Of a stretch of 64,000 bases of DNA, positions 17,518 to 44,808 are shown in pieces (position 1 is the stretch's first letter; each line of letters begins with the position of its first letter). The stretch lies in the NCBI RefSeq assembly GCF_053078305.1, contig NZ_CP166879.1, one strand, 5' to 3'. The notes under the pieces are model-generated. The model did no database searches and was not told the origin of the DNA. It saw nothing but the letters and a program-made list of their open reading frames with translations. The position numbers and the translations under genes were made by a program.

Positions 17518-19106
17518 TGGGACGTATAATTGATCTTGACGGAAAACCTTTCTCCTTTGACCCGGAGATGCAGAGTGCCGCGCTGGATATTCCGCAGATT
17601 GCCAGCCGTTATATTGAACATCCGGCCTCGGGTATCACCCCGAACCGGGCGGCGCAGTGCCTTCGCGGGGCTGAACGTGGCGATCTGATTGCCCAGTCCG
17701 ATCTGGCCGCTGACATTGAAGAAAAGGATACCCACCTTTTTGCAGAGCTGGGCAAGCGACGTCTTGCCATTCAGGGGGTGCCATGGAGTATTGAGCCGCC
17801 ACCGAACGCCAGCGCGAATGAGAAAAAGGACGCGGAAATGCTCGACGAATATCTGCATTCCGCCGACTGGTTTGATGCCATGCTGTTTGATGCCACCGAT
17901 GCCATCCTGAAGGGCTATTCCTGCATGGAGATTGAGCACGGGATGCTCGGTAAAATGCACATCATCCGCGCCATCCGCTGGCGTGACAGCGGGCATTTCT
18001 GCCTTAACCCGGATGATTTGAGCGAACTGCGGCTGCGTGACGGCAGCCATGCCGGGGTGGCGTTTCAGCCCTTTGGCTGGATAGTGCATCAGTCGCGTTC
18101 ACGCACTGGCTACGGTGGTGCGACGGGGCTTGTCAGAACGCTTATCTGGCCGTTCATTTTCAAAAACTATTCCGTGCGCGATCTGGCTGAATTTCTGGAG
18201 GTGTACGGCCTGCCGATGAAGGTCGGGAAATACCCGTCCGGGGCAACACCGGAGCAGAAAAGCGCCCTGATGCGGGCGGTGATGGATATCGGGCGACGTA
18301 CAGGCGGGATCATCCCTGCCGGGATGTCGCTGGAGTTTCAGGCAGCCGCGAACGGTCAGGCCGATCCGTTTGAAACCATGATTTCGTGGGGGGAGCGTTC
18401 CATCTCCAAAGCTATCCTCGGCGGCACGCTGACCACGGAAGCCGGAGACAAGGGCGCGCGTTCGCTGGGTGAAGTGCATAACGAGGTGCGCCGGGAAATC
18501 AGGGATTCTGATTTACGTCAGCTGGCCGCCACGCTGAACCGCGATCTGGTGTATCCGCTGTATGCCCTGAACACCGCCCACGCCATTGATATCCGTCGCC
18601 TGCCGCGTATCTGTTTCCAGACCAAAGAGCCGGGGGATATCACCAAAATCACCAGTGCGGTGATGCAGCTCAGTACGGGGATGGATATTCCAGATCCCTG
18701 GGTACGGGAGCAGACCGGTATTCCACAGCCAGCCCCCGGTGAAGCCATCTTCCGTGTCCGGCAGAGCAGTAATGAACCCGCGCAGATCAACAGGGAAACA
18801 CCGCCGGAAAAACAGGAAAAGACAGAGCAGACGGCGCTGTCAGCCCGAGTGCCGGAAGCGAAAAGCAGCCCCCGTGATGAACTGGACGACATGGGGGATG
18901 CGGTGCCTGCCCGCCGGTTACAGGAGGCCATCGACCCGCTACTGGAGCCGGTCATTGATGCCATCAGAACGCGGGGGCTGGCGGATGCGCTGGCAGACCT
19001 GCCTGCCCTTTACCGTGAAATGGATGATTCCCGCCTGATGACGCTGCTCAGTGATGCCATGTTTGCTGCGGAAATGAAGGGGATGCTGGATGGCTCAGGG
19101 GATTGA
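17508..19106 (+). CDS. portal protein (Mu gp29/H-like)
   Basis: 532 aa ORF following the large terminase. Confidence 0.8.
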   Translation: MLVVGRIIDLDGKPFSFDPEMQSAALDIPQIASRYIEHPASGITPNRAAQCLRGAERGDLIAQSDLAADIEEKDTHLFAELGKRRLAIQGVPWSIEPPPNASANEKKDAEMLDEYLHSADWFDAMLFDATDAILKGYSCMEIEHGMLGKMHIIRAIRWRDSGHFCLNPDDLSELRLRDGSHAGVAFQPFGWIVHQSRSRTGYGGATGLVRTLIWPFIFKNYSVRDLAEFLEVYGLPMKVGKYPSGATPEQKSALMRAVMDIGRRTGGIIPAGMSLEFQAAANGQADPFETMISWGERSISKAILGGTLTTEAGDKGARSLGEVHNEVRREIRDSDLRQLAATLNRDLVYPLYALNTAHAIDIRRLPRICFQTKEPGDITKITSAVMQLSTGMDIPDPWVREQTGIPQPAPGEAIFRVRQSSNEPAQINRETPPEKQEKTEQTALSARVPEAKSSPRDELDDMGDAVPARRLQEAIDPLLEPVIDAIRTRGLADALADLPALYREMDDSRLMTLLSDAMFAAEMKGMLDGSGD

Positions 19107-20415
19107 TTTAGGTTATGCCGCCACGCTTCCCTCAAAAGAGGCGGTGGCATACTTCCGCGCCAAAGGGGCGCATATCAGCTGGAACTGGTTCGAAACAGAC
19201 GCGGATGTTCATGCCCGTTCATTCACGGCGGCAAAAGTGGCACGCCTGGACGTACTGACCACACTACAGGCGGAAGTGCAGCGTGCTGTTGATGAGGGGA
19301 TTTCACAGAAAGCATTTATCCGCACACTGACACCCCGCCTGCAAAAGCTGGGATGGTGGGGAAAGCAGATTGTGGTGGACAGTGCCGGTAACGCGGAAGA
19401 AGTGCAGCTGGGCAGCCCCCGCCGTCTGGCGCTGATTTACAACGTGAACACCCGCGTGGCTTACAATGCCGGGCGTTACACGCAGATGATGAACAACACG
19501 GACACGCATCCGTTCTGGCAGTATGTAGCGGTGATGGACAGCCGCACCCGCCCGGCGCATTCCGCCCTTAACGGGCTGGTATTCCGCTATGACGATCCGT
19601 TCTGGAATACACACTACCCACCCAATGGCTGGAACTGCCGCTGCCGTGTCCGGCCATTGTCTCAGGCCCGTCTGGATGCAATGGGGTTATCCGTTTCATC
19701 CGGTCAGGATCATCTTTCCACCCGCAATGTTGAGGCTGGCGTGGATAAGCAGACCGGAGAAGTCAGAGAAATGCCGGTGACCACATATTCAGATGGCACC
19801 AGAACCATGACACCGGATGTGGGCTGGTCATATAACCCCGGTTCGGCGGCGTTCGGCACAGACCAGGCGCTGATCCGCAAGCTGATCGAAGTGAAAAGCC
19901 CGGCGTTACGGGAAATGGTGGTTCAGGAGATGAACAACAGCCCGGAGCGGCAGCTGGCGTTCCGCATCTGGGCAAAAAACATCATGAAAACCCGGCGAGG
20001 CGGTAACGATATCCGCACGCTGGGCTTTATGACCGAAAGTATTGCGCAGGCGGTGGAAAGCCGGACGGGAACGCCACCGGCCCGCCTGCTGGCGATGAGC
20101 GGTAAAAATGTGCTCCATGCGGACAGCGTGAAACATCAGAATGACGGTATCGCCCTGACGCCGGAGGATTTCGCGCAGCTTCCCGCCATGCTGGCTTCCC
20201 CCGATGCCGTGCTGTGGGATCATGTCCATCAGAACCTGCTTTACATCACTGAAACCCGTGACGGAACGGCAAAGATTGCCGTCAATGCGCCTTATGGTGT
20301 GAAGCGCCAGCCGGATAAGCTGGATGTGGTAATTAATGCTTACCGGGTAAATAAATTTGATATTGAAAAAGCAATAGAGGGCGGAAAGCTGGAACTACTG
20401 GAAGGTAAATTGTAA
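19090..20415 (+). CDS. Mu F-like head morphogenesis protein
   Basis: 441 aa ORF in the expected position after portal. Confidence 0.75.
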   Translation: MAQGIDLGYAATLPSKEAVAYFRAKGAHISWNWFETDADVHARSFTAAKVARLDVLTTLQAEVQRAVDEGISQKAFIRTLTPRLQKLGWWGKQIVVDSAGNAEEVQLGSPRRLALIYNVNTRVAYNAGRYTQMMNNTDTHPFWQYVAVMDSRTRPAHSALNGLVFRYDDPFWNTHYPPNGWNCRCRVRPLSQARLDAMGLSVSSGQDHLSTRNVEAGVDKQTGEVREMPVTTYSDGTRTMTPDVGWSYNPGSAAFGTDQALIRKLIEVKSPALREMVVQEMNNSPERQLAFRIWAKNIMKTRRGGNDIRTLGFMTESIAQAVESRTGTPPARLLAMSGKNVLHADSVKHQNDGIALTPEDFAQLPAMLASPDAVLWDHVHQNLLYITETRDGTAKIAVNAPYGVKRQPDKLDVVINAYRVNKFDIEKAIEGGKLELLEGKL

Positions 20416-20495
20416 GCCGGTGACGGGGGTCGAACCCGCATAAACATATGACCCCTGAGGGTTTATGCCGCTTTACCAGTTAAGAGTACACCGGC
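20416..20495 (-). ncRNA. tRNA-like element (acceptor stem and T-arm recognisable; anticodon arm not resolved)
   Basis: Minus strand reads GCCGGTG…GCGGG-TTCGACC-CCCGT-CACCGGC: 7 bp acceptor stem and GGTTCGA-type T-loop; an internal 8 bp helix GCATAAAC/GTTTATGC encloses CCTCAGGGG. No encoded CCA. Confidence 0.3.
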
Positions 20496-20533
20496 CTGTA
20501 TTTATTTTAATCAGATAGTTTTAAGGAGGCAAC

Positions 20534-21007
20534 ATGTCATCCATCGATGCAGCCGTGGTGGTGGACGTTGCGCGTCTCCAGCGGGTCTTTGCCCGGCTTC
20601 AGTTTGTGGGTGGTGGAAAAGACCTGGCCCGCAGTGTGGCGGCGAGTCTTCTGTCATCGTCAGAAATGGCGTTTGAACAGGAAAAAGAGCCGGACGGCGA
20701 ACGCTGGCATGACTGGTCAGATCCTTACCGCAAGTGGCGTACCCGTAAGGGATACATGCCCGGCAAAATCCTGACGCTGAACGGCGATCTGGCCCGACGC
20801 CTGACCACGGATTATGGCGACACCTGGGCGCTGATTGGATCAAATGAGCCTTATGCGGCCATTCATCAGTGGGGTGGCCTGCCCGGTATGCCACCGGGAC
20901 CGGCGGCCATTGGTGCACGTCCGTATATGGGCTTTGATCAGGTGGCAGAGCAGGAGATCATGGACGAAATCAGAAAACGCTTTAAAAAGGCCACAGAAAC
21001 GCCTTAA
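20534..21007 (+). CDS. Mu G-like virion morphogenesis protein
   Basis: 157 aa ORF between F and the protease/scaffold gene. Confidence 0.7.
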   Translation: MSSIDAAVVVDVARLQRVFARLQFVGGGKDLARSVAASLLSSSEMAFEQEKEPDGERWHDWSDPYRKWRTRKGYMPGKILTLNGDLARRLTTDYGDTWALIGSNEPYAAIHQWGGLPGMPPGPAAIGARPYMGFDQVAEQEIMDEIRKRFKKATETP

Positions 21008-21183
21008 TTGTTTAAGGTATGCAAATGCATTACCTTACCCCCTTCAGGCGCGTGTCGTGATTTTCTAACCTGTATTTAACGGGCTTTAAAATCTGCGTGA
21101 AGCGCCTTTGTATTTTTCCCCTGGAAGCACTTCCTGAAATCCCGCAAAACCCGCCCTGAAAATTCCCGGCTTATGCTGCCGGA

Positions 21184-35577: not shown

Positions 35578-36099
35578 TTATTCCGGTTTTTCCGGCCAGG
35601 GAATCGCCTGGTAATGCCCCTCACTGGCAATATCATTAAAGTGCATTTCTTTAAGCTGTCGGATATACGCCATCCAGCGCGTCAGCTGTAATTTATTTTC
35701 ATCGCTAATCATGTCCAGTTTTAATTCCGTTTTCCAGTCATCCACAGTTTCGTTGGCTTCCTGGAGCAGCGATGAGCGGCGCTTTTCAGCAACCGTCTTC
35801 CAGTTTACCGGCACCTTTGATATCAGGCCATCAGAAAACTGCCAGTTACCGTCAATATCCACACCTTCCGGCAGTTCGTCCACTTCAACAACAGTAAAAC
35901 CTGCCGGATATAAAGCAGAGACATCTTCAGCAACAGAGCAGATAATACCCGTTACAGGCGAAATACAGAGTTTGTATTTCTTTGTGAAAAGCGGGAGAGA
36001 TTCATAAAAATCCCTTCCGTCCTCACTCTGGAAATACTGAACATCCTCACCATAGGGTTTGTGTTCCGGGTAATATCGTTTTACGTTAATAAGCTCCAT
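35578..36099 (-). CDS. tail fibre assembly chaperone (U'-like)
   Basis: 173 aa from the ATG at 36099 with AGGTG SD; C-terminal …ISDENKLQLTRWMAYIRQL…PWPEKPE matches the Tfa/U family. Confidence 0.75.
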   Translation of the reverse strand: MELINVKRYYPEHKPYGEDVQYFQSEDGRDFYESLPLFTKKYKLCISPVTGIICSVAEDVSALYPAGFTVVEVDELPEGVDIDGNWQFSDGLISKVPVNWKTVAEKRRSSLLQEANETVDDWKTELKLDMISDENKLQLTRWMAYIRQLKEMHFNDIASEGHYQAIPWPEKPE

Positions 36100-36178
36100 T
36101 ATTTCACCTTGTTTTTGTTGAAAAGACAAAATCATCATATATTTATTCAGATAATCTGTTTTTTGAACTACTGCACTT

Positions 36179-36542
36179 TTATGCGCTGGAAGCTGTTTTC
36201 CACGAACCATTTATCAGAAACTGAACAGGGCGATAATATGCGGTTACCGTTGCATTACCATCACCAGCGACATCAAGCCCTGTAAGTACGCATCCGTCAG
36301 GAACTTCAAAAATATTATATTGCATTCCAATCGTTGACCTTGAACCTCTTCGAATGCTTTGAACATAACGTGAGTCAGCCACAGACTGCGTCATCCCCGA
36401 TGTAATATTGATATCCTGCGTTCCGTCGAAAGGAACGCCATTAATATTTACTGGGGTGGCGAGTTTATTCGCTGCCACGGCGGTTCCACCCGATGGCAGG
36501 GCATCAGCAGCCTTATTTACCGTTTCCCGTAAACCGAGGTTT
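36179..36542 (-). other. alternative tail-fibre variable C-terminal segment (promoterless, usable after inversion)
   Basis: Reverse-strand coding segment homologous to the C-terminus of 34632-35543 (AANKLATPVNINGVPFDGTQDINITSGMTQS…YYRPVQ…), ending at the stop at 36179. Confidence 0.65.
36399..36542. repeat. right inverted repeat of tail-fibre invertible segment
   Basis: Perfect reverse complement of 35157-35300. Confidence 0.85.
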
Positions 36543-36603
36543 CAGGGATGTCGTATATCTGCTTTAAAAGGCATTTTCACCTCTTTTTAAGGAAGGTAAA
36601 TAC

Positions 36604-37164
36604 ATGCTGATTGGCTATATACGCGTATCAACAAATGACCAGAACACAGGTTTACAAAGAAATGCGCTGGAATGTGCAGGATGTAAGCTGATTTTTGAAG
36701 ATAAAATGAGCGGAAAAACAACGCAGCGGCCGGGACTGAAGCGGGCACTGAAGAAACTAAAACCCGGTGACACGCTGATGGTCTGGAAACTGGACAGGCT
36801 GGGGCGCAGTATGCGCCACCTTGTTGCGCTGACAGATGAATTACAGCAACAGGGGATAAATTTTCGTAGTCTTACTGACAACATTGATACGTCAACCCCC
36901 ATGGGGCGCTTCTTTTTTCACATAATGGGTGCGCTGGCAGAAATGGAGCGTGAATTGATTGTCGAACGGACACGGGCTGGTCTTGCAGCTGCCCGTGAAA
37001 GGGGACGAACCGGTGGCAGACCCCGTCGTCTCACGCAGGAACAATACGAGCAGGTCGGGCGTTTACTGGCCGGGGGTGTCAGCCGAAGACAGGTGGCACT
37101 TATTTTTGATATCGGCCTTTCAACCCTTTATCGTTATTATCCTGCAAGCATTTCGGAAAAATAA
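36604..37164 (+). CDS. gin: Gin/Hin/Pin-family serine DNA invertase
   Basis: 186 aa starting MLIGYIRVSTNDQ… with resolvase catalytic domain and C-terminal HTH, adjacent to the inverted repeats. Confidence 0.9.
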   Translation: MLIGYIRVSTNDQNTGLQRNALECAGCKLIFEDKMSGKTTQRPGLKRALKKLKPGDTLMVWKLDRLGRSMRHLVALTDELQQQGINFRSLTDNIDTSTPMGRFFFHIMGALAEMERELIVERTRAGLAAARERGRTGGRPRRLTQEQYEQVGRLLAGGVSRRQVALIFDIGLSTLYRYYPASISEK

Positions 37165-37254
37165 GACGCTCCCTTTGTTGGGCCTTTACTGAATTAACGC
37201 AAAATGGCGTTTATCGGTCTGTGGATATGATAATTCTGTTTATTCAGGAACAGG

Positions 37255-39312
37255 ATGAATATTATGACGTCCAAATGGGTTCAACTATCATCAATGCCCG
37301 GAAACTTTACCGTTAAAGTTTCCGGTGGTACAGCGGCATTTCTTGAGGCTCCTTTTCCTCCGGCTGAAACGAAAGGAGGAATGACATTTGCTGACTGTCT
37401 CATCAGTTTTAATACACAGGATTGCCTGTGGGTAAGGCCAGTATCCGGTGATCCGAACGTGGAAATTACCGGAGCGGGTATTGGTGCTGTCATTCCGTTA
37501 AGTGCTGATGTTGCCGGTACTACTGAACCGTCAGACTGGGATAATGCTGAAACACATACCCGTCCGGCAGGAAATGAAACGGCTTCCAGCTCCCCTTCCT
37601 GGTATTACGTGATTGTTATAGCCGGTCAGTCCAATGCTTCATCTTATGGTGAAGGGTTGCCCCTGCCGGATTCTTATGATCGTCCTGATCCACGTATTAT
37701 GCAGCTGGCACGCAGGAATACACAAACCCCCGGAGGTATTCCCTGCAAATACAATGAAATCATTCCAGCAGATCACTGCCTTCATGATGTTCAGAATATG
37801 AGTCTGCTGAACCATCCAAAAGCAGACCTGAAAAAAGGGCAGTATGGTTGTGTGGGTCAGGGACTTCATATTGCGAAAAAAGTATTACCGGTGATTCCTG
37901 CTGATGCCGGGATTTTACTGGTTCCCTGTGCCCGTGGCGGCTCTGCTTTTACAACCGGCGCAGTTGGCTCATTCGATCCGGCAAGTGGTGCAGCCGAGGC
38001 GTCACTACGCTGGGGAGTGGATACCCCACTGTATCAGGATCTTGTCAGTCGAACGAAAGCGGCACTTGAGGCGAATCCAAAGAATGTGCTGTTATCTGTC
38101 GTATGGATTCAGGGGGAAGGAGACCTTAAAGCGACCCCGGCCCAGCATGGTGCCCAGTTTACTGCGATGGTGAAAAAATTCCGTGCGGATCTTGGTGCTT
38201 TCTCCGGTCAGTGTATTGGTGGTTCATCAGACAGTGTGCCGTGGTTATGTGGTGACACAACCTATGACTGGAAAGAGAAGAACCCGGCGGCATATGAAAC
38301 CATTTATAGCGGATATAAAAACCGGGCTTCCGAGAACATTCACTTTGTTCCACTGATGCACGATGAGTTCGGTAATAAAACCGCGACCAACCTGCCGGAG
38401 CACGACCCGGATATCGCTTCTGCCGGGTATTATGGTGCGGAATCACGGGGAGATGGCAACTGGACAACAGCATCCAGGGCAACCCATTTTAGCTCCTGGG
38501 CGCGCCGTTTTCTGGTCTCAGATCGTTTTGCATCAGCAATTCTTAAATATGCAGGTCTGACCTCTGCATTTATTGCCGGTGTGGCCCCTGATGGTGAAGC
38601 CCTGCCTCAGCCCGCGCCGGGTGGAAAACCGGAAGCTCCGACAGGTAGTCAGCCAGGAAGCAGTGAGTCCCCCCAGCCGACATCCCCGTCACTCCGTACG
38701 CTGCTTTCACTTAAAGCATCAGCAGGGGAAGCCCCGGCTCAGGGATGGAAAATTACAGATGGTACAATCCAGCTGACGGACGAAGGTAAAGCGCTGACCG
38801 TATCCAAACAAAGCGGAAAAACCTGGTCACTTACCCATGCGACCAGTGCTGCCGGAGAGCTGTTGCAGCATGGTGGTCAGTTGACCTGTAAATTCCGTCT
38901 GTCAGGTGAAGTAAAAGAAGGCCAGTTTGCTCTGGGTATTTACCTCCACACCGATACGGTCCCGGAAGGTGTAACCATGAGTGGTACAGGCACACCGTTC
39001 CTGATGGCGTATTATCTCCAGACAACAGGCGGCCAGTTAAATCTGATGCACCATAAAACAGGGGGGAATACGAAACTGGGATCATTTGGAGCCTACAATA
39101 ACCAGTGGCATACACTTGTCCTGAAGTTTACGGCGGGAAGTGCCCAGGTAACGCCTGTGCTGGATGGCACTCCGGGCCAGGCATTCCAGATGGTGAAAGA
39201 TGCACTTTCCCCTGCCAAAGATACGCTGACACTGACAGATGTCACCAAAGGGGCAACTTATGGCGTGTCTTTTGAGAGCGTTGTCCTTGAGGTTAATACC
39301 CCTGCGGCATAA
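37255..39312 (+). CDS. NanS-like SGNH esterase (putative 9-O-acetyl sialic acid esterase) with C-terminal extension
   Basis: 685 aa; residues ~115-430 closely resemble recalled E. coli NanS/YjhS (YYVIVIAGQSNASSYGEGLPLPDS…DTPLYQDLVSRTKAAL…CGDTT…DRF); ~250 aa extra C-terminal domain. Confidence 0.7.
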   Translation: MNIMTSKWVQLSSMPGNFTVKVSGGTAAFLEAPFPPAETKGGMTFADCLISFNTQDCLWVRPVSGDPNVEITGAGIGAVIPLSADVAGTTEPSDWDNAETHTRPAGNETASSSPSWYYVIVIAGQSNASSYGEGLPLPDSYDRPDPRIMQLARRNTQTPGGIPCKYNEIIPADHCLHDVQNMSLLNHPKADLKKGQYGCVGQGLHIAKKVLPVIPADAGILLVPCARGGSAFTTGAVGSFDPASGAAEASLRWGVDTPLYQDLVSRTKAALEANPKNVLLSVVWIQGEGDLKATPAQHGAQFTAMVKKFRADLGAFSGQCIGGSSDSVPWLCGDTTYDWKEKNPAAYETIYSGYKNRASENIHFVPLMHDEFGNKTATNLPEHDPDIASAGYYGAESRGDGNWTTASRATHFSSWARRFLVSDRFASAILKYAGLTSAFIAGVAPDGEALPQPAPGGKPEAPTGSQPGSSESPQPTSPSLRTLLSLKASAGEAPAQGWKITDGTIQLTDEGKALTVSKQSGKTWSLTHATSAAGELLQHGGQLTCKFRLSGEVKEGQFALGIYLHTDTVPEGVTMSGTGTPFLMAYYLQTTGGQLNLMHHKTGGNTKLGSFGAYNNQWHTLVLKFTAGSAQVTPVLDGTPGQAFQMVKDALSPAKDTLTLTDVTKGATYGVSFESVVLEVNTPAA

Positions 39313-39584
39313 TCGTGACGGCCGGGAATTTATCCGGCTGTAACATCAGTTAATAAGAGTGAGGCTTATATGACATATATAAACGTCTGCCTGCTGTATT
39401 TCTGCACGGTGGTTTGTTGTCTGTTGCTTGTCAGCGGTGGTTATAAAATTATTCGCAATTATTTTCGAAATAAAATTGATGCAGCTGCCGAGGAAAAGAT
39501 AAAAAGCGGTGCTGTAATGCCGCAGCCGAAAGACTCCGGTCAGATTTAATTTTTTGTGAACCAGAAAAGGAAAGGAGAATATTC

Positions 39585-39830
39585 ATGCCAGAGATTAAAG
39601 GCACGGTTACTGAAGAGCTTGTCAAACAGGCACTTTATTCTGAAGAAGTGAACCGCGTGCTGAAGGCGCAGGTTCGCAAGGATTTTGAGGCACAAATCGA
39701 CGCATATGTTGATGAAGTGCTGGCCCGAATGGTTGGCCATTCTCCGGCTGAAAACAGCACGGAGAATGAGCCTCAGCCCGTAGAGCAACCAGAGCCGGTT
39801 CAGCCCGGAACTGACAGTGCCATGATGTAA
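39585..39830 (+). CDS. hypothetical small acidic protein
   Basis: 81 aa ORF with strong SD AAAGGAAAGGAG upstream. Confidence 0.4.
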   Translation: MPEIKGTVTEELVKQALYSEEVNRVLKAQVRKDFEAQIDAYVDEVLARMVGHSPAENSTENEPQPVEQPEPVQPGTDSAMM

Positions 39831-39904
39831 CAATACAAACCGACAGCTTCTCCTGTCGGTTTGATTTTCATGGGCGATGTATATACCAGTCAGAGGAAAT
39901 AATC

Positions 39905-40105
39905 ATGGACAAGAACAAAAAGCAGCCCGATACCAAAGGTCTGGAAATATTAAGCGCAGAAATTATCAATGCGCTACGTTCAGGACTTGATGAAAATACA
40001 TTACAGGATCGAAACTTCACCACTGCAATGTGGATAGCGATGCAGATCCTGTGTACCCCAAGATGCGCTATTTTTGCGGTTCGTGAGGGTCAGTTGACTC
40101 GCTGA
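39905..40105 (+). CDS. hypothetical small protein
   Basis: 66 aa ORF, weak support. Confidence 0.3.
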   Translation: MDKNKKQPDTKGLEILSAEIINALRSGLDENTLQDRNFTTAMWIAMQILCTPRCAIFAVREGQLTR

Positions 40106-40298
40106 TTGCCCGAATTACATCAGAAAAGCACGCGTTCCATAATTGCATAGCTGATGAATCACCAGCTGTATGAAAAGAGGTAAAGACACAACTGGTGGAT
40201 GTCATTGCTGCAATTGTGATATCAGCTGCAATTCGCGCAGCCTGTAACTTTTGGTCGGTGGTCAGTTTATCCATTTTCTCCTGCCTGAACAGATGCAT
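40068..40298 (-). CDS. hypothetical small protein
   Basis: 76 aa ORF on the opposite strand overlapping the previous ORF; only one of the two is likely real. Confidence 0.25.
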   Translation of the reverse strand: MHLFRQEKMDKLTTDQKLQAARIAADITIAAMTSTSCVFTSFHTAGDSSAMQLWNACFSDVIRAISESTDPHEPQK

Positions 40299-40529
40299 CT
40301 CTGCTTTACAGGAGGCCGGGGAATATCATAGGATACACCACGAGCTCAGAGTGAAGCATTGATGCAGTTTTTTACAGATTGACCCAGAATAGTTCGCGCT
40401 ATCTGAGTCGCCATTTATGTAGTCCCGAAGTAAAGCATTGATGCAAACTTGTCTAAATCGGCCCAGCATAGTTCCAGCTATGCTGGGTTTCCCTTTTATG
40501 TAGTATCCTGTTGATTTGAAACATACTAC

Positions 40530-40760
40530 ATATACGCGCGATCCTACCTTCACTGGATAAAAAGTCAATAAAATGATCATTTTATGATCGTTTTCACCAC
40601 CTAACTCTTCGTTTTCTTTAAGTAAATAATCACCGCCCTGAATCATTGTTGATGACTTTTCAATCTATTTGTTGTATCAATTAAACAAATCGAATCGATC
40701 GTTTTTGTCGATCGATTGCATGAGAAAGGCATCAACAACAAAGCAGGAGGTTATGCGGCC
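40530..40760. promoter_or_regulatory. putative mom operon control region with clustered Dam (GATC) sites
   Basis: GATC at 40540, 40575, 40586, 40697 and 40710 within ~180 bp upstream of com; Dam-regulated mom promoter in Mu is established knowledge. Confidence 0.45.
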
Positions 40761-40961
40761 ATGTATCGAAACATACGGTGCCGACACTGCAATAAGCTAC
40801 TGGCACGGGCCAGTTTCAGTTATCTGGAAGTAAAATGTCCGCGCTGTAAAACCCTCAATCAAATCACATCTCCGAGCGCCACAGAGCACCCCACATACAC
40901 AAGGAAATCCTGTCGTGGGGAACAGAAAGCAAGTCACATCCCGTATCATCAGCACGCCTGA
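40761..40961 (+). CDS. com: Com-like zinc-finger translational activator
   Basis: 66 aa from the ATG at 40761: [14 protein letters not shown]…[10 protein letters not shown], two CxxC pairs as in Mu Com; 3' end overlaps the mom start. Confidence 0.7.
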
Positions 40962-41652
40962 ACTTATTCGCTATAACGACAATATCGTTGGTTATGGTTC
41001 CCGTGAGTTGCGGGTTGAGACAATAAGTTGCTGGCTGGCCAGACTGGTTATCGTCAATAAACATTACAGCCACCGTTTCGTAAATAACTCCTACCTTCAT
41101 CTGGGCATATTTTCAGAACGGGAACTTGTTGGCGTAATGCAATGGGGTTACGCCCTTAACCCAAACAGTGGTGCACGCGTCGTAACGGGTACGCAGAACC
41201 GAGAATATATGGAGCTGAACCGGCTATGGATGCATGACTGTATGCCGAGAAACTCCGAATCAAGGGCAATCAGTTACGCGCTCAAGCTAATCAGGCAGCT
41301 TTATCCGCAGGTACAGTGGGTTCAGTCGTTTGCAGATGAGCGTTGTGGCTGTCTTGGTGTCGTGTATCAGGCAAGCAATTTTGATTATGTAGGCAGCCAT
41401 GAAACAATATTCTATGAACTTGATGGCGAGTGGTATCACGAGATTTGCAGGAATGCCATTAAACGAGGCGGACAACGAGGTGAACATCTGAGGGCTAATA
41501 TCGACAGAGCCAGTGTGCATAAGTTCCGACAGTTTCGTTACATCCGGTTTCTGAACAAGAGGGCCAGAAAACGCCTCAACACAAAGCTATTCAAAGTCCA
41601 GCCTTACCCAAAACCACAAACAGTTAAAACTGGTTTGAAAGAGAGTGAATGA
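40915..41652 (+). CDS. mom: Mom-like DNA modification protein
   Basis: 245 aa ORF (GTG start) overlapping com and located at the right phage end, the Mu com/mom arrangement; function by position and architecture. Confidence 0.6.
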
Positions 41653-41710
41653 GCGCTTAAAAACTCATTCTAAAACTCAAAAGAAAAGCGCCGATTTAGT
41701 ATCAAATAAG

Positions 41711-41764
41711 TTGCGTATCGGCGTTTTTCAGCGGTATCAAATGAAATGCAAATCGGTATCAAAA
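41711..41764. repeat. right-end transposase-binding repeats (attR-like)
   Basis: CGTATCGG (41714-41721), GCGGTATCAAA (41731-41741), TCGGTATCAAA (41753-41763), inverted relative to the left-end copies. Confidence 0.6.
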
Positions 41765-43030
41765 AAATCGCCGCGCTATACCCACCAGACTCATTCCTGC
41801 CCAGCCTACAGGACTCAGGTTACCGTAAAGAATGACCGCCAATATTGCCAGTCCACCCCATTGCAAAAAAGTATCAGGCCGGTAAAACGAAGACTTTTTA
41901 CGCGGCAGATAAAATTTCTGCATCCGTAAAAATGCCCTGCGTAAGACTCTGTTGCGTCTCCCCGTAAGAACGACCTTATCGCCTTTACGAAATAACGCTT
42001 CCAGTAATAACTGCTCTGCGGGCAGTAATACCTCATTATTTCTGGTCGCGCCTTCATTAACACGAATCAGGATTTGCTGGTTCTTATCATACTGATCTTC
42101 CAGATGAATTTTTCCTTTCACAATCAGATTTACGATATCGGCACAAAACCCTTTATCGTCGTAAACCAGCTTCGCATCGAGACGTAACATGCCGGGCGTG
42201 TAATCTGGCGGAATGACATCGGTTTCAATCACATCTACCGGCGTAAATTGCGGCCTGCGCTTCCAGAGATATAACCATCCACAAACCAGGAATAGACACG
42301 GAAACCAAATTAACAACGATGACGTGGAGGGTAAAAGAAGATGGCTGAAAATATTCGTCGTTTGTGGAGCCGGGGCATTGCTAAGTAACGAGTGAGGCCA
42401 ACGGTAGAGGACCGTGAAATCTTCACGATAAAACGGATCGCTGGATTCAATTCTTCCGTCCTCAAGGATGCGGCCATTTCGATATGTGTCGCCCTCTTCT
42501 CCAGTAAAGAGATCGATTTCGCTAAATGGATTACCCGCGATATCAGGGAACTTGAGTGAAAATCGGGTCTTATAGATTTCAAACGGCCAGTGGTTACCAG
42601 TCACGTTCCAGATTAACAGATCTGAATCTCCCTCACGCAGGAAAGCATTTTTAACCTGATAATGAATTTGATAATGATAGTCGCCTTGGGGCAAGAAACG
42701 TTGTTTATCGCCCACGACAATACTCATTAACCCGATATGCCAGTCAAGATGCCAGGGTTCAGGAATACCATCACGGGTTACGCCAACAATATGATAGTTC
42801 AGCAGTGCTGCGTCCCCATCAGGCTGCATCCAGAGTCGTGGTAAATCACGATAAAATCCGTGCTTAATCTGCTGATTTCGCGCCTGAAAATGAATGTTCT
42901 CTTTGATGTCGAGCACCCCATCCGGTTGCAGAGTGGCTTCAGAAGGGATCTCCGTGTTTTCTGCATAACTTAGAGATGATACAAACAGCCCTGCTATCAA
43001 CAGCAAAATGCAGCGAAACTTCCCTGCCAT
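41759..43030 (-). pseudogene. yciQ: yciQ 5' fragment (N-terminal part), truncated by the prophage; stop codon formed at the junction
   Basis: 423 aa ORF with signal peptide whose TGA (41759-41761) lies inside the phage terminal motif. Confidence 0.75.
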
Positions 43031-44693: not shown

Positions 44694-44738
44694 ATGAAAG
44701 CAATTTTCGTACTGAAAGGTTGGTGGCGCACTTCCTGA
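44694..44738 (+). CDS. trpL: trp leader peptide
   Basis: [14 protein letters not shown] with tandem Trp codons. Confidence 0.95.
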
Positions 44739-44780
44739 AACGGGCAGTGTATTCACCATGCGTAAAGCAATCAGATACCC

Positions 44781-44808
44781 AGCCCGCCTAATGAGCGGGC
44801 TTTTTTTT
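44781..44808 (+). terminator. trp attenuator terminator
   Basis: AGCCCGCCTAATGAGCGGGCT hairpin followed by T8. Confidence 0.9.

Follow-up and report, generated by a model that had tools for sequence, protein, structure and literature searches.

tRNAs are one of the main battlegrounds of phages against bacterial immunity. To our knowledge, the phage answers known so far are functional replacement tRNAs or repair enzymes. The tRNA-like domains of YrlA, a bacterial Y RNA, and of tmRNA mimic the tRNA elbow. The tRNA-like RNAs of gammaherpesvirus 68 are tRNA-shaped and non-decoding, with a degenerate anticodon region. In the case of the C4 and CI RNAs, the specificity is set by variable loops. The tRNA-like RNAs of MALAT1 and MEN-beta are also tRNA-shaped and non-decoding (PMC4919922). 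C4 RNA is a substrate of RNase P, according to a passage of PMC4919922 that cites Hartmann et al. 1995. Septu cuts tRNA-Tyr, and phage T6 escapes by amplifying anti-defence loci (PMC13096335).

We analysed a tRNA-shaped RNA encoded between the late genes F and G of a Mu-like prophage (F-G RNA). The window, which was the whole stretch of DNA analysed, had a length of 64,000 nucleotides. Neither a published description of this RNA nor an Rfam family for it was found. It was highly probable that it is a selected, non-decoding tRNA-like RNA.

Fold and strand of the element between F and G

Gene F (19090-20415, plus strand) encodes a Mu gp30-like minor head protein (PHROG 220, E = 2e-115; RefSeq 'phage head morphogenesis protein'). 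Gene G (20534-21007, plus strand) encodes a Mu gp31-like neck or tail-completion protein (PHROG 26, E = 2.5e-42; RefSeq 'phage virion morphogenesis protein'), and its Shine-Dalgarno AGGAGG was located at 20524-20529. The initial annotation had placed a tRNA-like element on the minus strand directly after the F stop, with a 7-bp acceptor-type stem and a canonical T arm. The element was real. The minus strand of window 20415-20495 formed a cloverleaf with a 7-bp acceptor stem, a D arm and a canonical T arm, and relatives carried the same element. The acceptor stem and the T arm GCGGG/UUCGACC/CCCGU were found where they had been put, and the element began at the last base of the F stop codon. This codon (TAA, 20413-20415) is the complement of RNA positions 73-75.

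Read from 20495 to 20415, the minus-strand letters were GCCGGUG-UA-C-UCUU-AACUGGUA-AAGC-G-GCAUAAACCCUCAGGGGUCAUAUGU-UUAU-GCGGG-UUCGACC-CCCGU-CACCGGC-U. This core of 81 nt corresponds to tRNA positions 1-73 and was assigned using the Rfam tRNA model, our own covariance model, the RefSeq 'tRNA-OTHER' label and covariation. Its parts, all on the minus strand, were the acceptor 5' strand (20489-20495), U8 and A9 (20487-20488), an extra C between position 9 and the D stem (20486), the D stem, loop and stem (20470-20485), G26 (20469), the long arm (20444-20468), the variable loop UUAU (20440-20443), the T arm (20423-20439), the acceptor 3' strand (20416-20422) and position 73 (20415). The initial annotation had been unable to fold a standard D arm, which was present after all. 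In the cmscan alignment, its stem UCUU/AAGC formed three pairs and a U.C mismatch, and its loop AACUGGUA carried A14, G18, G19 and A21. The features of the tRNA L-shape kept in the F-G RNA were the acceptor, D and T helices, U8, A14, G18 G19 and the UUCGA T loop. An 8-bp helix, GCAUAAAC/GUUUAUGC, had been proposed for the middle of the element. It could be formed in the window copy, but not in relatives with other tips, and it would consume the variable loop and the first two bases of the T stem.

The single-sequence folding energy of the F-G RNA was unremarkable (z = -1.7). Covariation was analysed using 17 distinct copies (alignment A2), with the acceptor, D, T and arm-base helices counted. 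Standard pairs were found in 92.9% of the cells, compared to 39-52% when the partners were slid by one to three columns. Two-sided changes were observed in 10 of the 20 pairs, and the covariation score was equalled by none of 500 shuffles. In addition, the paired cells contained G.U and A.C at 36 to 1. This meant that the selected RNA strand was the minus strand, since the plus strand would lose these pairs. The fold is more than chance and is under selection on the minus strand. A DNA-level element, such as a cruciform or an att or pac site, was ruled out by the same asymmetry. The initial annotation had counted a lack of tRNA-finder matches, of covariation and of the region in relatives as evidence against the element. 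Strong covariation and conservation were found instead, and a tRNA-derived structured RNA, one of the two readings it had offered, agreed with a scaffold that was conserved and covarying on the minus strand.

The tRNA finders gave a divided answer. ARAGORN found no tRNA or tmRNA across the whole window and called no tRNA in 12 relatives of the element. Infernal gave a marginal match. In the 321-nt stretch at 20300-20620, the Rfam tRNA model (RF00005; gathering threshold 29 bits) matched 20415-20495 on the minus strand with 31.4 bits and E = 6.6e-5, and this match was lost under default filters and found with lax filters. The label given by the RefSeq/NCBI pipeline to the identical sequence was 'tRNA-OTHER', with no isotype assigned. 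In the Rfam alignment, 15 nt of the window copy were taken as the anticodon 'loop', and 18-29 nt were skipped in relatives. The family copies scored 27-35 bits with this model, with the arm skipped. Real tRNAs usually score far above this range. Our own family covariance model found one copy in the window with 95.4 bits; the second-best match was 12 bits, and no further family copies were found in the window.

No Rfam family other than tRNA was matched, with C4, tmRNA and Y-RNA-like families included. For the C4 family, 20300-20620 was searched with an E limit of 10 and six relatives with a limit of 0.1, and no match was obtained. A tmRNA was rejected: the ARAGORN search, which included tmRNA, found none, and the element has only 81 nt. 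A weak TarA match was observed downstream in the E-value mode of Rfam (E = 7.4) and was taken as chance. At gathering thresholds, Rfam reported the trp leader alone across the whole window. This tryptophan operon leader was located at 44715-44808 on the plus strand (93 bits), where the DNA is host chromosome; the right end of the prophage was near 41.8 kb.

The long arm, the acceptor end and the predicted promoter

In place of the anticodon stem-loop, the F-G RNA carried a long arm with a hypervariable tip, UAAACCCUCAGGGGUCAUA (20447-20465, minus strand). The arm of the window copy showed the conserved fold, with a base helix GCAUA/UAUGU, then ACCC/GGGU and then the tetraloop UCAG. The arm base was conserved as GCA/UGU in the scaffold of the window (type A) and as GUG/CAU in type B, and the sequence of the distal helix was free. 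In every variant, the arm was a closed irregular hairpin between position 26 and the variable loop. The closing loops had 4-14 nt overall and included UCAG, UCAA, UCCG, UUCG, UAAC, UGUACA and others.

The acceptor helix was extended and closed. It had 9 bp (20414-20497, minus strand), as indicated by covariation of the pairs -1:73 and -2:74. In the window copy, -2 (A, 20497) paired with 74 (U, 20414) and -1 (G, 20496) paired with 73 (U, 20415). In the 17 distinct copies, the pair -1:73 was GC nine times, GU three times, UA twice and AU once, and the pair -2:74 was AU nine times, CG four times and UG three times. The length of the helix across copies was 9, 11, 12 or 14 bp. CCA was encoded in no copy, and the unpaired discriminator was absent. 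Since the anticodon loop was absent and the acceptor end was closed, the RNA cannot decode.

These features were weighed against a working tRNA, in which either the anticodon loop would be enlarged or a small intron would be present. Its Rfam tRNA score was just over the gathering threshold, and one unit on an island (described below) is a tRNA-Tyr in RefSeq. However, a 7-nt loop with U33 was found in none of about 25 distinct copies. The insertions in the arm had about 8-20 nt and unrelated sequences, positions 73 and 74 were paired with no CCA encoded, and none of the copies was found by ARAGORN. The arm of the 'Tyr' unit was perfectly palindromic, CAGCCUG UA CAGGCUG. It leaves an even-numbered loop, so that no 7-nt loop is possible. 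We regarded a working tRNA as extremely improbable, and the divergent tRNA offered by the initial annotation was given up on the same loop, ARAGORN, CCA and 73/74 results. The F-G RNA was not filed as a tRNA because it lacked two defining tRNA features, an anticodon loop and a free chargeable end.

A sigma-70 promoter of the F-G RNA was predicted at 20504-20532 on the minus strand, with TTGCCT, a 17-nt spacer and TAAAAT. It was the sole promoter-like site within 20200-20800. The -10 box TAAAAT (20504-20509, minus strand) was unvarying while the promoter spacer dropped to 58% identity, and it ended 5-7 nt ahead of the first paired base in most prophage-borne copies. An environmental contig had TATACT as the -10 box in place of TAAAAT. 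The -35 box TTGCCT (20527-20532, minus strand) overlapped the ribosome-binding site of G and was confounded with it, since that site was conserved even in L080, a related locus that is free of the element. The predicted start was the A at 20497, the first paired base of the helix. This argued against a 5' leader on the predicted transcript, as would be needed for a 5' end made by RNase P from a longer precursor; the units of the island arrays would still need processing. No terminator-like site was found after the F-G RNA on the minus strand.

The position of the predicted promoter bears on cis-antisense action or transcription interference, which would tune the expression of F and G, for example through RNase III. 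Transcription from this promoter would converge with that of the late operon, and the stable RNA would be complementary over its full length to the F-G spacer in the late mRNA. The -35 box overlaps the Shine-Dalgarno of G, and the RNA is antisense to the late operon. The plus-strand copy was also stable, with -30.3 kcal/mol. However, the predicted RNA start was 27 nt short of the Shine-Dalgarno, and Mu and L080 manage without the element. Islands without F or G carried the same RNA in arrays. In addition, the tRNA tertiary nucleotides and the compensatory changes are needless for antisense action. Such a cis-acting role was considered improbable.

The tip of the arm was swapped wholesale between prophages with 96-100% identical flanks. 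Between prophages that were otherwise 96-100% identical over F, G and I, the replacement affected a block of some 190 nt, with RNA position -1 at one end and a point slightly beyond window 20343 at the other. Two unalignable patches were located within this block, the arm tip (20447-20465) and a patch in F (20343-20385, plus strand). The F patch was a hypervariable coding patch, NKFDIEKAIEGG, at about amino acids 418-431, as determined by sliding identity and alignments. It consisted of 40 nt, a 12-aa stretch ahead of the conserved GGKLELLEG tail, and was usually replaced along with the RNA tip. In the case of loci L079 and L125, the F patch was common and the tips were unrelated, which indicated that the tip varies on its own too. 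The F patch may be linked to the RNA rather than part of the RNA module, and the block replacement could be driven by the adjacent variable F patch instead of the RNA. We also considered a toxin-immunity pair, in which the C-terminus of F would be a fused toxin domain and the RNA would provide the immunity. This was rejected, since the F tail aligned end to end with Mu gp30 and with an element-free relative.

The exchange of tips raised a trans-acting antisense regulator on a tRNA-like scaffold, of the kind of C4 of P1/P7 and CI of P4, in which the tip would determine the specificity by pairing with a target RNA, for example in immunity or in the control between helper and satellite. The tip was the only hypervariable part of the RNA and was exchanged as a cassette between near-identical prophages. 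Several tips had loops of 10-14 nt, and the islands encoded Icd-like and Ash-family proteins. RNase P-processed phage regulatory RNAs are known (PMC4919922). However, many tips were 4-bp helices under UUCG, UCCG or similar tetraloops, in which nothing is left to pair. When two tip classes were scanned for exact complements in their own prophage, the longest stretch outside the element that could pair with the arm had 10 nt, a length expected by chance, and none reached 11 nt. When each tip was compared with each variable F patch, in either sense, no preference for the cognate patch was observed. There was also no Rfam match to C4 or another small RNA family. A trans-acting antisense role was given a small probability.

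Conservation and distribution in prophages and islands

The initial annotation had remarked that Mu has no tRNA. The element was absent from Mu, where F and G overlap with no spacer. It was also absent from L080, in which G is 65% identical and the F stop abuts the ribosome-binding site of G. In the window, about 105 bp (20416-20520; promoter and RNA gene) lay between the F stop codon and the G Shine-Dalgarno, on the strand opposite to the late genes. The element-free junctions of Mu and L080 meant that these 105 bp were inserted exactly between the two sites. Related loci were recovered from IMG/VR by the G protein. The element was upstream of G, on the opposite strand, wherever G was 61-99% identical, L080 excepted, and it was missing from the three most distant loci. 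It is an insertion particular to one lineage of Mu-like prophages. As in a moron, an extra predicted transcription unit was located between genes that are adjacent in relatives. Regarding the moron trait of an own promoter and terminator, there was a promoter-like site with an unvarying -10 box and no terminator on the minus strand.

Other parts of the prophage were also noted. The record of Mu puts the gyrase cut site just after gene G, and the equivalent G-I spacer here had 176 nt (21008-21183, plus strand). By similarity to annotated relatives, the right arm (about 36000-41800) carried a recombinase (invertase-like), a 2-kb DUF6645 gene, DUF1378, DUF826 and com/mom genes. No complete RefSeq E. 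coli genome was found to carry this prophage at the insertion site seen here.

The 106-nt region of the element was 100% identical in 59 complete E. coli genomes, with O157:H7 strains included. Among 5426 complete E. coli genomes, type A was found in 77 and type B, at the same site, in 171. The family is present in roughly 4% of complete E. coli genomes, O157:H7 included. It was found in only two of 50,697 GenBank phage records, both of a Stx-phage with an inserted Mu-like phage. The 5' pattern of the family had no match in 100,044 species genomes. The T-arm pattern matched only Clostridia-type MAGs and one Actinomycetes MAG, which were assumed to be ordinary tRNAs.

The scaffold was more conserved than its surroundings. 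Compared to L074, the element was 95% identical, the last 400 nt of F 73%, G 72% and the promoter spacer 58%. As judged from these sequences, the scaffold is under purifying selection, the arm is constrained only to stay a closed hairpin, and the module is repeatedly exchanged. Metagenome scans returned diverged units in L110 and L111 that kept the plan of a -10 box, a long closed helix, D and T arms and a capped arm, and otherwise returned the same scaffold types. L111 is a 1.1-kb environmental metagenome contig with two diverged units on the minus strand (120-197 and 754-833). Each was behind TATACT; their closed acceptor helices had 12 and 14 bp, and their arms were capped (UUCG, UUUA). These units indicated that the plan extends beyond E. 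coli prophages.

Point changes in the T loop, G57A or A58C, were frequent among E. coli copies (many of type B). G57A was found in the second Mu-like prophage of O157:H7 F1273 (L138, 201-285), and A58C was found in one IMG/VR group (L061 and related loci). When such a change is present, RefSeq no longer annotates the gene. G57A keeps a purine at position 57, and A58C would break the usual T54-A58 pair. Such changes could mean that some lineages are under less constraint.

A decaying tRNA pseudogene or a neutral prophage remnant would fit the common T-loop changes of E. coli copies, the absence of an anticodon and of CCA, and the marginal tRNA scores. However, the element was better conserved than the neighbouring coding sequence, with 10 compensated pairs and an unvarying -10 box. 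The arm always stayed a closed hairpin, diverged units on an environmental contig kept the plan, and tandem arrays were found on islands. Decay was considered very improbable. An ordinary-looking phage tRNA was also observed (L011 787-867, identical in L017 and L020), with a 7-nt loop CUUAUAA. Its 3' half, AUGUGGGUUCGACCCCCACCACCGC, was nearly identical to that of the family, and it scored 43.9 bits with the family model. By its sequence, this type of phage tRNA is possibly the ancestral type.

In 13 E. coli genomes, two or three tandem units were found about 24 nt apart, and both scaffold types occurred in these arrays. Each array was at the end of an island of 8-10 kb, and a gene of the Mor family ('late transcriptional activator') was located about 280 nt upstream of it. 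The islands carried an integrase, an HTH protein, Icd-like and Ash-family proteins, SSB, PerC and a replication module, which was either a RepA helicase or toprim with DUF927. In L007 (33646-41641), as well as in L087, L088 and L089, the order was SSB, PerC, the Mor-family gene and the array. GTGAAA-type repeats were observed between Mor and the array on islands. Three chromosomal sites were found, within mdtP, next to tRNA-Ile/mug, and between yicC and dinD. The layout was like that of phage satellites, and the gene content and the three insertion sites fitted the PICI/P4-like class. The region upstream of the island array had no sigma-70 consensus site. A search for an activator site common to this upstream region and the late-promoter regions of the prophage gave only 8-9-nt matches at chance level.

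The identity between the island Mor and the Mor-family protein of the prophage was 47%. In at least three of the genomes with an island, the type A/B searches gave a second match, which may be a copy in a Mu-like prophage. From this layout, the islands may be satellites of Mu-like phages. We know of no described satellites with Mu-like phages as the helper class. The small integrative islands, with their tandem copies after a Mor-type activator, are a possible candidate.

The islands also bear on the possibility that the RNA serves the F protein or virion assembly as a partner, and that satellites copy it to hijack or block their Mu-like helper. The RNA is directly adjacent to F, and the replaced block held both the tip and the variable 12-aa F patch. 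Islands carried both scaffold types behind the activator related to that of the prophage, and the second matches in at least three island-bearing genomes were also counted in favour of this role. However, L079 and L125 had unrelated tips with their common F patch, and linkage alone accounts for the co-replacement of sites 75 nt apart. Both F binding and the helper-satellite relation are hypothetical. A role with F was considered quite improbable.

Proposed function and comparison with known RNAs

The best explanation overall was a selected non-decoding tRNA-shaped RNA that is made from its own gene and acts as a mimic of the tRNA body. It was held tentatively, at somewhat less than an even chance. 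The decoy or mimic mechanism taken separately was more doubtful, although it could be outlined. Transcription of the F-G RNA would begin at its own sigma-70 promoter, in the lysogen as well, and the 3' end of the RNA would be trimmed back to the helix. The RNA would then mimic the tRNA body and bind or titrate a factor of the host, the phage or a satellite by which the tRNA elbow and core are recognised. Such a mimic would escape decoding, charging and cutting at the usual sites. The conserved parts were those of the elbow and core, and the parts for decoding, charging and most known cleavage were sealed and variable in length, which favoured a tRNA-body mimic. The lengths of the arm and of the acceptor helix both varied, so that a partner that measures either is unlikely. 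The swapping of modules among near-identical prophages and the arrays on islands would fit a role in the conflict between phage, satellite and host.

In a wider proposal, doubly capped tRNA mimics would form an undescribed family of Mu-like prophages and of satellite-like islands, where they occur in arrays, and would act as decoys or adaptors in the phage-satellite-host conflict. This was rather unlikely as a whole. Such mimics might neutralise a tRNA-directed defence or toxin. Alternatively, they might titrate a factor of the helper phage, with the exchangeable tip and the variable F patch as arms-race surfaces. If the mimic reading is true, a conserved RNA that is reduced to the tRNA body and sealed at both reactive ends would solve the problem in another way, as a mimic and not a substitute. 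In addition, pathogenic E. coli commonly carry the locus, with an incorrect annotation. The annotation of the family in E. coli was inconsistent, as 'tRNA-OTHER', as tRNA-Tyr or missed, which is a recurrent annotation problem.

The canonical tRNA (RF00005) was nearest to the F-G RNA in both sequence and fold. The F-G RNA shares with it the 7-bp acceptor stem, the D arm with G18 G19, the UUCGA T loop, U8/A14 and the short variable loop, and the phage tRNA of L011/L017/L020 had the nearly identical 3' half. In contrast to tRNA, the F-G family has no anticodon loop, an arm of 25-37 nt instead of 17, an extra base between position 9 and the D stem, and positions 73/74 paired to the 5' end, with no CCA and no predicted 5' leader. 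The anti-defence phage tRNAs are also tRNA-type genes carried by mobile elements amid host-phage conflict. However, they are functional replacements, whereas the F-G RNA cannot decode, and only a hypothetical decoy action would be possible for it.

The C4 (P1/P7) and CI (P4) RNAs are, like the F-G RNA, small phage or satellite RNAs with tRNA-like features, and they are regulatory. In contrast to them, the F-G RNA had no Rfam match of that kind and had a full tRNA elbow; many of its tips were tetraloops, no target complementarity was found, and no 5' leader was predicted for RNase P. The mascRNA and MEN-beta RNAs resemble it as tRNA-shaped, non-decoding RNAs with a degenerate anticodon region. 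However, these and the herpesvirus RNAs are eukaryotic, are cut from longer transcripts by RNase P and RNase Z, and are CCA-tailed, whereas the F-G RNA is encoded by a bacterial prophage gene with its own predicted promoter and has a closed acceptor end. Unlike the F-G RNA, YrlA uses its RNA ends for the stem that binds Ro and mimics the acceptor with a closed hairpin, and tmRNA carries a tag reading frame and a CCA end that is free and can be charged. Neither family was matched here by Rfam or ARAGORN. By analogy, the nearest functional precedents would be the non-decoding tRNA-like RNAs, namely C4 of P1/P7, CI of P4, mascRNA and YrlA. The F-G RNA differs from these in topology, processing or both.
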